Source of the DNA: a virus
DNA: 64,000 nucleotides
Virus record (IMG/VR): IMGVR_UViG_3300037067_026753
Reading direction: 5' to 3' (one strand)
Under the pieces are notes generated by a model. It searched no databases, was not told the origin of the DNA, and saw only the letters and a list, made by a program, of their open reading frames with translations. This document shows, in pieces, positions 34,298 to 34,391 of this stretch; positions within the stretch are counted from its first letter, which is position 1, and the number at the start of each line of letters is the position of its first letter. Position numbers and translations under genes: made by a program.

Positions 34298-34391
34298 GCA
34301 ACAGAGCAGTACTCTAACCGGACTAAGCTACACCCACCATATTTTTAAGGGGTAGGTGGCCTGATTTGAACAAGCGCCTCTGCTCTATCAG
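34298..34391 (-). tRNA. circularly permuted tRNA gene (3' half - 13-nt linker - 5' half); anticodon GAU(Ile) or GUU(Asn) depending on junction
   Basis: minus strand: CTGATAG-AGCAG-AGGC-GCTTG-TTCAAAT-CAGGC-CACCTAC-C | ccttaaaaatatg | GTGGGTG-TA-GCTT-AGTCCGGTTA-GAGT-A-CTGCT-CTGTTGC; acceptor 7/7 bp (one G-U), anticodon stem 5/5, canonical T- and D-arms, U8, U33. Confidence 0.55.

Follow-up and report, generated by a model that had tools for sequence, protein, structure and literature searches.

The window analyzed here, which is the whole 64,000-nucleotide stretch of IMG/VR virus record IMGVR_UViG_3300037067_026753, encodes on its minus strand two tRNA-like RNAs that have a gene for a DUF7873 protein as their immediate upstream neighbor. 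The interpretation that we favor, with moderate confidence, is that these RNAs are two anticodon-less permuted tRNA mimics belonging to a conserved DUF7873 module, that they are probably processed at the acceptor into two-piece, CCA-ended molecules and that they probably act on machinery that recognizes tRNAs. The anticodon arm is replaced by a long helix formed by the transcript's own leader and trailer, and the adjacency of gene and RNA is conserved in phages and in several bacterial phyla.

Two permuted tRNA bodies downstream of the DUF7873 gene

Element 1, the locus of a preliminary description, has its core at positions 34302 to 34388 (minus strand). The evidence for it consists of the sequence, an RNAfold prediction, the in silico re-ordering of its halves and two covariance models: R1, built from seven hand-picked elements with a 21-bp cloverleaf-like structure, and R2, built from 99 hits in viral contigs without the window sequences. 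The minus strand reads, as DNA, AGAGCAG-AGGC-GCTTG-TTCAAAT-CAGGC-CACCTAC-C-CCTTAAAAATATG-GTGGGTG-TA-GCTT-AGTCCGGTTA-GAGT-A-CTGCTCT and, as RNA from 34388 to 34302, AUAGAGCAG-AGGC-GCUUG-UUCAAAU-CAGGC-CACCUAC-C-CCUUAAAAAUAUG-GUGGGUG-UA-GCUU-AGUCCGGUUA-GAGU-A-CUGCUCUG. The 5′ strand of a basal stem, a 4-nt variable loop, the T-arm (GCTTG/TTCAAAT/CAGGC), the acceptor 3′ strand CACCTAC and C73 come first and are followed, after a 13-nt linker, by the acceptor 5′ strand GTGGGTG, U8, A9, the D-arm, A26 and the basal stem 3′ strand. This sequence agrees with the earlier account of a 3′ tRNA portion, a 13-nt linker and a matching 5′ portion carrying U8, A9 and A26, and the 7/7 acceptor pairing claimed there was also observed, with one of the pairs being G-U; the T-stem is paired at 5/5 positions.

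RNAfold predicted that element 1 forms a four-way junction in which the acceptor arm is closed and the basal helix has 10 bp. In the minimum free energy (MFE) fold of the whole intergenic RNA, the element with its extended leader/trailer helix spans 34289 to 34429 (minus strand), and this helix consists of an inner 10 bp and then 2 + 8 outer pairs, with a small 5′ side hairpin. The 11-bp leader/trailer helix described earlier is therefore present, as merely the inner part of a longer one. The fold energy of element 1 was not exceptional (z = −1.2, RNAfold), and so thermodynamics alone is insufficient to establish the element, and the case that it exceeds chance rests on homology.

It was found that ARAGORN called no canonical tRNA or tmRNA in the 64-kb window and gave no contiguous tRNA model at the locus, and that Rfam at its gathering threshold gave no match of any kind, including tRNA. 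Therefore, there are no flanking tRNA halves that could make element 1 the junction of tandem genes, in agreement with the preliminary description, which had argued against such a junction. When the halves were re-ordered around an artificial anticodon loop, ARAGORN called a tRNA in 109 of 111 elements, both window elements among them, whereas controls with a shuffled 5′ half gave 0/111 calls. The sequence and this re-ordering confirm that element 1 is a tRNA body written in permuted order, with the 3′ half upstream of the 5′ half and the acceptor ends joined.

R1 and R2 each matched exactly two sites in the window, one of them element 1 (72.8 bits with R1; 58.2 bits with R2, E ~1.5e-17). The other, element 2, was absent from the preliminary description and has the same layout as element 1. 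This second permuted tRNA-like RNA has its core at 34091 to 34187 (minus strand; sequence, RNAfold, R1 and R2), and scored 89.8 bits with R1 and 58.0 bits with R2. Its T-arm is GGCGG/TGCAAAT/CCGCT, its D-arm is GCTC/AATAGAA/GAGT and residue 73 is U; the acceptor strand CAGACCC pairs with GGGTCTG in a stem that is lengthened to 10 bp and capped by a hairpin. The predicted fold (−57.5 kcal/mol, z = −2.6, RNAfold) includes a long basal helix with internal loops that extends to about 34211/34060, such that element 2 with this helix occupies 34060 to 34211 on the minus strand. Relative to the stop codon of the DUF7873 gene, element 1 starts at +63 nt and element 2 at +264 nt.

Conservation of the gene and RNA unit

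Related loci were gathered as a viral set of 80 loci recovered with the DUF7873 profile and a bacterial set of 80 loci that were kept, and an element was scored as linked if a non-tRNA R1 match lay within about 950 nt downstream of DUF7873 on the same strand. The element was found beside DUF7873 in most of these loci, namely 73/80 viral and 65/80 bacterial, and at least two of the viral misses have an element with an insertion of about 100 nt in the acceptor arm. Clustering of all open reading frames (ORFs) in the flanks of both sets gave no other conserved neighbor gene. The conserved unit is the DUF7873 gene with its RNA or RNAs, and the major vault protein (MVP) homologue encoded farther downstream in the window is local context only.

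The closest relative of the window (locus L001) is a 195-kb viral contig with a DUF7873 protein that is 79% identical and with the order DUF7873, element 1, element 2, hairpin, small ORFs and MVP homologue. Both of its elements differ from those of the window by compensatory changes in every helix; for example, the T-stem is GCUUG/CAGGC in the window and GUUCG/CGGAC in L001, and the acceptor is GUGGGUG/CACCUAC in the window and GUGAAUG/CAUUCAC in L001. Both elements were also found in locus L003, with a DUF7873 protein of 59% identity. No close DNA relatives of the window were found in the phage collection.

In a bacterial and archaeal collection with one genome per species, DUF7873 gave more than 550 hits, which include Streptomyces, Actinomadura, Nonomuraea, Streptosporangium, Cytophagales, Saprospiraceae, Myxococcota, Thiomargarita, Leptospiraceae and Planctomycetota. 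Among cultured phages, an R1 match follows DUF7873 in phiRSL1, FBKp24 and RHph_TM30; in GodonK, Fryberger and Mimi, DUF7873 is followed by an unannotated gap of about 400 to 600 nt, as judged from annotation only, without application of R1 to the gap.

The phage DUF7873 genes sit in tRNA arrays or among replication genes, with the gene lying inside a tRNA array in GodonK, Mimi and RHph_TM30. In 30/116 loci, the element is followed within 300 nt by the start of a genuine tRNA, and in bacterial loci a genuine tRNA of varying identity often follows. The off-target matches of R1 and R2 are junctions of tandem tRNAs. The only DUF7873-linked matches that overlap an ARAGORN tRNA are that of L071, which is a tandem-tRNA junction, and an element of FBKp24 (L083). 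In the latter phage, the "tRNA-Sup-TTA" at 5013-5097 (GenBank, ARAGORN) has its T-arm and 3′ acceptor strand in common with the element at 5056-5157 and is probably a mis-annotation. The first element of FBKp24, at 4856-4939, has an encoded ACCA and a D-arm of the tRNA-Leu type. We also observed R1 or R2 matches away from DUF7873 that do not overlap an ARAGORN tRNA (L063 at 1132-1206 and 2472-2545; L064 at 6481-6555; L024 at 1131-1314). Some of these have acceptor loops of 4-5 nt, and they may be further permuted tRNA-like elements in phage tRNA arrays.

The tRNA core and its covariation

For family-wide comparison, 145 non-redundant elements were parsed, of which 143 were left after dropping two overlapping tRNA calls. 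The nucleotides of the tRNA core are retained almost without exception: U8 in 145/145, A14 in 141/145, the D-loop GG in 141/145 and G53:C61 in 144/145, with a family T-loop of UUCRANY. The Levitt pair 15:48 covaries, being G15:C48 in 72 elements and A15:U48 in 64, with 9 exceptions (Fisher 4e-32); the switch is seen between window element 2 (A15/U48) and its L003 homologue (G15/C48). Because the full core and the tertiary nucleotides are kept, each RNA should fold into an L-shape.

The helices are maintained despite extensive change of sequence. In the seven-element alignment, 99.3% of the cells were paired and 14 of 21 pairs had changed on both sides, values that 0/500 shuffles reached. Among 89 distinct sequences, in alignments that were fitted to the model and are thus biased towards the structure, 94.9% of positions were paired over the 21 pairs, there were 672 double-sided changes, and the covariation score was 0.875, relative to 0.21 for shuffles and at most 0.154 for slid partners. 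The acceptor was paired 7/7 in 137/143 elements, with 103 distinct acceptor strands, and an eighth acceptor pair, N73:N(−1), was not conserved in the 89 sequences.

Two classes of element recur. The first element of a locus often has a Leu-type D-arm (…GGUAG) together with A73 (25/28), and the second element has a Gly-type D-arm (GCUC-AGUGGUA-GAGC) and most often U73.

The acceptor junction and its predicted processing

It was found that CCA directly follows N73 in 58/143 elements, compared to 1.4% expected from the composition of the loop (binomial 3.6e-68), and that C74 is present in 137/143. On the other side of the linker, position 1 is G in 109/145 elements, position −1 is U in 69/145 and position −2 is a purine in 130/145; in 94/145, N73 and N(−1) do not pair. 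Bacterial tRNA genes have these same features, and among them too CCA is encoded in some and missing from others. The presence of CCA after the discriminator in 58/143 elements suggests that the acceptor hairpin is cut in the manner of a pre-tRNA. The junctions in the window are C-CCU in element 1 and U-CAC in element 2; as neither encodes CCA, both would need a CCA-adding enzyme.

By this route, RNase P would cut 5′ of G1, and the 3′ side would be trimmed, receive CCA, or both. The outcome would be two base-paired pieces with a free NCCA end, as in the YrlA RNA of Mycobacterium smegmatis. The acceptor stem of that RNA has 7 bp, and RNase P cleaves the RNA both in vitro and in vivo (PMC4201824); the RNA receives a CA that completes the CCA tail, and its two halves stay together in a ribonucleoprotein (RNP) (PMC4201824).

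The anticodon side

Across the 145 elements, the equivalent of the anticodon stem is a contiguous helix of 4-7 bp, beyond which come an internal loop and an outer duplex of leader and trailer, with no 7-nt loop. The outer duplex had a mean energy of −24.3 kcal/mol, relative to −16.5 kcal/mol for shuffled flanks (Wilcoxon 3e-25), and L001 and L003 have corresponding outer helices with different sequences. In the MFE fold of the window, the residues at the proposed anticodon loop are base-paired in the extended leader/trailer helix; the equivalent residues are UUUAGUA in L001 and UAAAAGG in L003. There is no U33-type loop conserved family-wide, and no bulge-helix-bulge (BHB) motif (3-4-3) was visible in the MFE folds of either window element, to which no dedicated BHB scanner was applied.

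The preliminary description had proposed maturation to a decoding tRNA by BHB splicing and ligation, with GAU or GUU as the anticodon. Because the loop residues are paired, are not conserved in L001 and L003 and are not accompanied by a BHB in the MFE fold, we reject this proposal, and neither anticodon is retained.

We also observed a U[UA]AG motif (often AUUAG) located 7-9 nt past the D-stem and opposite an A-rich 5′ strand in 32/145 elements, with enrichment in viral members. Examples are at about 6065-6075 in L030 and at 34276-34282 in the window. It might represent an internal loop that is conserved, or a site of protein binding.

Relation to known tRNA-like RNAs

The closest known analogue of the DUF7873-linked family is YrlA (RF02553), especially the M. 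smegmatis form. Both have the order T-arm, closed acceptor-like stem-loop and D-arm, both keep the tertiary nucleotides of tRNA, including a covarying 15:48 pair, and in both the 5′ and 3′ ends form a long stem, often in two tandem RNAs beside a partner gene. The processing of the M. smegmatis RNA, with its 7-bp acceptor, RNase P cleavage and CCA (PMC4201824), is that which we propose for the family. The partner differs, being Ro60 (Rsr) for YrlA and the DUF7873 protein of about 250 amino acids (aa) for the family. Further differences from YrlA are that the 7-bp acceptor is the rule (137/143), that CCA is encoded in the genome in about 41% of elements, that there are Leu-like/A73 and Gly-like/mostly U73 classes, and that the module is frequently embedded in tRNA arrays.

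When Rfam was scanned by E-value, YrlA was the sole family to appear in the window, at element 2, with 27.5 bits (E = 0.0054) against a gathering threshold of 69. In the alignment to element 2, the part of the model that holds the Ro60-binding strand was deleted, and element 1 gave no match; in 20 further related loci, YrlA gave no match at the gathering threshold. A YrlA RNA is expected to lie within about 4 kb of a Ro60 (TROVE) gene and on its strand; no TROVE domain was found among the 30 window ORFs scanned, which included all those of at least 400 aa. The motif GNCGAAN0-1G, a putative Rsr contact close to the 5′ end of YrlA, was present in 11/145 elements, compared to 5.4 ± 2.2 in shuffles, and in neither window element. 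Phages reported to have Ro60 and YrlA include several mycobacteriophages (PMC4201824); none of the 75 phage records with a DUF7873 match is a Mycobacterium phage. Of the testable defining features of YrlA, only the tRNA-like module was found in the family. The preliminary description had regarded such an RNA in a phage-like genome as new, and this needs qualification: RNAs with a permuted order and closed acceptor are already known as bacterial and phage YrlA (PMC4201824), and what is different here is the gene partner.

The family shares with the permuted tRNA genes of Cyanidioschyzon merolae, some green algae and Thermofilum pendens an upstream 3′ half, a short linker that joins the acceptor ends and would be removed by RNase P and 3′ processing, and a complete tRNA body. 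The algal and archaeal genes have a BHB motif, and their transcripts are circularized to restore the anticodon loop and function in decoding. In contrast, no BHB (in MFE folds), anticodon loop or conserved anticodon was found in the family, and to our knowledge bacteria and phages do not have the BHB splicing endonuclease.

The two-piece tmRNA of alpha-proteobacteria and others resembles the family in having a T-arm, 3′ acceptor, encoded CCA, intervening segment and 5′ acceptor in this order, a long helix in place of the anticodon arm and a dedicated protein partner (SmpB for tmRNA), whereas the family has a full D-arm and lacks a tag reading frame and pseudoknots. A tmRNA-like identity was considered and rejected: ARAGORN called no tmRNA, G3:U70 was found in 7/143 elements, none of which has A73 (window element 1 combines G3:U70 with C73), and standard tmRNAs coexist with the module in L003 and L064. 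These are one-piece tmRNAs located a few kb from the module, at 8624-9024 and 9713-10115, respectively. The tRNA-like structures at the 3′ ends of plant viruses and mascRNA-type mimics likewise have a tRNA shape in the 3′ part of a transcript that is recognized by RNase P or by the CCA-adding enzyme; their topology, hosts and gene context differ from those of the family, and the likeness is one of analogy only.

Genes and signals around the module

The DUF7873 gene of the window lies at 34451 to 35218 on the minus strand and encodes 255 aa (Pfam PF25283, E = 7.6e-67). The family comprises 2492 clusters at 50% identity and is single-domain throughout the top 150 clusters, with lengths of 191-275 aa. 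An AlphaFold2 model, with a predicted local distance difference test score (pLDDT) of 84.7, has long helices packed on a sheet and a long β-hairpin. DUF7873 gave no match in PHROGs, NCBIfam or PADLOC, and the literature searched contained no mention of it. The window protein is 100% identical to PHF86_11760 from a metagenome-assembled genome of "Candidatus Nanoarchaeia archaeon", where it lies on a 424-kb contig. Because of its gene content and its IMG/VR relatives, this contig is probably a mis-binned huge phage genome; DUF7873 relatives were found on IMG/VR viral contigs of 40-440 kb, and the window is most likely part of a huge phage genome.

The order on the minus strand is DUF7873, the two RNAs, a conserved hairpin, a terminator-like hairpin, a small ORF, an R2K-clade ATP-grasp gene and the MVP homologue. 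Between the two elements (34240-34262 in the window, with equivalents in L001 and L003), the spacer has the conserved blocks GCAUACCA, UUAGUG, GAAAGUCCCAG and AAGGUGGU, and GCAUACCAG opens a four-codon frame that ends in a stop ("GCATACCAG...stop") in the window and L003, not in L001. On the 3′ side of element 2 there is a GC-rich hairpin, GGAGAGCCAGGCAGGGTAGTCTGGTTCTCCC, at 33977 to 34007 (minus strand), which was recognized from the sequence and fold and is the same in L001. A terminator-like hairpin with a T-run, seen in the sequence at 33924 to 33962 (minus strand), probably ends the DUF7873-RNA transcription unit, and no strong promoter was found between the DUF7873 gene and the RNAs in the window.

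The R2K ATP-grasp gene (32921-33679, minus strand; PF18299, 1e-27) is directly upstream of the MVP homologue (30293-32917, minus strand; 874 aa; MVP_shoulder 1.4e-24 and a Vault_3 repeat) and overlaps its start region, and this adjacency and overlap suggest that the two form an operon. Use of the R2K gene as bait for related loci gave no confirmed loci. The MVP homologue is 65% identical to the L001 protein (8872-11508 in L001), and phage MVPs have so far been reported from two gut phages only (bioRxiv 10.1101/2023.11.10.566534). A role of the RNAs as vault-RNA-like partners of the MVP homologue, which is encoded about 1.2 kb downstream, was considered and rejected as a general link, because MVP follows the module in the window and L001 only and DUF7873 is the universal neighbor.

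Two other genes could bear on the 3′ ends of these RNAs. A gene of the CCA-adding enzyme/poly(A) polymerase family (50820-52136, minus strand; PolyA_pol head, RNA-binding and HD domains) occurs in this 64-kb stretch devoid of a canonical tRNA gene, and its product could finish the CCA ends of both tRNA-like RNAs. A 332-aa protein with an OB-fold (tRNA_anti-codon family) and an HD domain is encoded at 12119-13117 (minus strand); this is the architecture of YhaM-type 3′-5′ exoribonucleases, and the protein could be relevant to the trimming of RNA 3′ ends.

Elsewhere on the minus strand of the window, the genes at 47377-48537, 44234-45199 and 42437-44206 gave weak Band_7/SPFH and PspA/IM30 matches and include one for a 589-aa protein with an OmpA domain. 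Burroughs and Aravind, in NAR in 2016, reportedly described SPFH/Band-7 scaffolds with a "novel tRNA-like molecule". Cargo that is unusual for a phage-like contig was observed at 21251-23812, 23816-26116, 28108-28824 and 29259-29744 (minus strand), and consists of an 853-aa type VI secretion system Hcp-domain protein, a 766-aa protein with Listeria-Bacteroides repeats and an FGE-sulfatase domain, a DUF1848 protein and a weakly matched macro-domain protein.

Discussion

In the interpretation given at the outset, the DUF7873 protein would bind the RNA, probably at the basal helix or an internal loop, as the conserved proximity of their genes suggests. The resulting RNP would act in trans on machinery that recognizes the shape of tRNA, with a possible role as an adaptor or decoy in tRNA maturation, in quality control or in phage-host conflicts over tRNAs. 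A bolder version, which we regard as doubtful, is that DUF7873 and the two-piece CCA-ended mimics form an unrecognized and widespread RNP in which the RNAs are charged by synthetases that ignore the anticodon and are used outside decoding. The Leu-like A73 class could then be charged by leucyl-tRNA synthetase, and the second class resembles tRNA-Gly; the uses might be, for example, aminoacyl transfer, action on ribosomes, or defeating or imposing a tRNA-directed attack during infection.

Several observations weigh against the favored interpretation. About one third of the elements have N73 paired with N(−1), and in many elements with long linkers, NCCA is paired with a UGG at the linker 3′ end, which lengthens the acceptor helix; such pairing may hinder RNase P, and so the CCA could serve recognition without cleavage. 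The elbow of element 2 is degenerate, with a T-loop of UGCAAAU and a D-loop without GG. No element was detected near some DUF7873 genes, most of them from a Cytophagales group (e.g., Bernardetia, L093), and the pair counts from the large alignments carry the bias mentioned above. The DUF7873 protein has no recognizable RNA-binding or catalytic fold, and its AlphaFold2 model gave no meaningful fold match in the PDB; its putative interaction with the RNA has synteny as its sole basis.

The resemblance to YrlA raises the possibility that these are ordinary YrlA/YrlB Y RNAs, which would bind a Ro60 (Rsr) protein encoded elsewhere in the genome, with the adjacency of DUF7873 being incidental or accessory. 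The shared layout and the two tandem RNAs, as in YrlA/YrlB (PMC4201824), are what such an identity predicts, as is the appearance of YrlA as the only Rfam family. However, that match is far below the gathering threshold and lacks the Ro60-binding strand, 20 loci gave none, no TROVE domain was found in the window ORFs scanned, and no neighbor of about 500 aa is conserved in the 160 loci. The rare occurrence of GNCGAAN0-1G and the absence of Mycobacterium phages from the 75 DUF7873 phage records point in the same direction, and we consider this identity rather unlikely. A comparably low probability is given to a device that acts in cis and produces no trans RNA, that is, a 3′-end signal of the DUF7873 mRNA that is cut by RNase P or blocks exonucleases, or an autoregulatory site in its 3′ untranslated region. 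The invariant position 3′ of the gene and on the same strand fits this idea, as do the terminator that comes only after element 2, the lack of a strong promoter between gene and RNA, and the tRNA-like 3′ half in which the processed mRNA would end. Yet the whole tertiary core, with D-arm and Levitt pair, is kept beyond the needs of RNase P or a 3′ block, several loci have terminator-like hairpins in the stretch from the stop codon to the first element, the FBKp24 annotation places a promoter between gene and RNA, and two distinct classes of element are maintained.

A pair of toxin and pseudo-substrate, in the logic of type III toxin-antitoxin systems, would have DUF7873 acting on acceptor ends and the mimic sequestering it; alternatively, the mimic would be a phage decoy against CCA-targeting toxins. 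This would suit a stand-alone module that is variably located and common to phages and chromosomes, a closed acceptor in which NCCA is embedded and classes that resemble Leu- and Gly-type tRNAs. FaRel2 (PMC11559606) and MenT (PMC10435456) are known precedents for antiphage toxins that target the acceptor end. We nevertheless hold this to be quite improbable: there is no PADLOC match and no nuclease or transferase fold, and Streptosporangiales have closely similar RNA flanks, with local synteny preserved between near relatives, which looks like a vertically inherited housekeeping function. Very improbable is a true circularly permuted tRNA gene, with ends that are cut and ligated into an anticodon loop and an acceptor that is opened to give a decoding tRNA (Ile-GAU or Asn-GUU). 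The permuted order, complete body and CCA encoded in the family would be expected of it, and the first helix, usually 4-7 bp, is near the 5 bp of an anticodon stem. Against this, the MFE fold pairs the candidate loop residues and has no visible BHB, the residues that follow the stem differ among the window, L001 and L003 and form no family-wide U33-type loop, and the outer leader/trailer duplexes are conserved as structure. Moreover, the acceptor arms vary from about 4 bp (L123) to 10 bp with an extra hairpin, no ligase or splicing endonuclease is a conserved neighbor, and bacteria are generally understood to lack the BHB endonuclease. As for decayed, functionless remnants of tandem tRNA genes, the same model does give scores at tandem-tRNA junctions and the module is often in tRNA arrays, but the acceptor pairing of 7/7 in 137/143 elements with 103 sequences, the strong covariation, the position and strand fixed relative to DUF7873 across phyla and the lack of flanking halves in the window leave this a negligible probability. 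Since neutral substitution patterns would otherwise be expected, the covariation effectively refutes it.

As far as we searched, the family and its linkage to DUF7873 are undescribed in Rfam 15, Pfam, PHROGs, NCBIfam, PADLOC and the literature; we found no literature on permuted tRNAs in phages and nothing relevant on phage tRNA mimics. The module exposes a gap in annotation, in that tRNA-shaped RNAs have been missed by tRNA finders and Rfam; they fall in unannotated gaps of 400-500 nt in genomes of Streptomyces, Actinomadura and Nonomuraea and in the well-known cultured phage phiRSL1, and probably also in GodonK and Mimi. For the 2492-cluster DUF7873 family, it provides a first functional lead, namely an RNA partner that is like a tRNA without its anticodon, and it suggests a possible system parallel to that of Ro60 and Y RNA with another protein partner. 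Cultures of strains and phages with the module already exist. Given its location within phage tRNA arrays, the module may be a component of the auxiliary translation gene sets of large phages that has so far escaped notice, and it may bear on the debate over why phages carry tRNAs.

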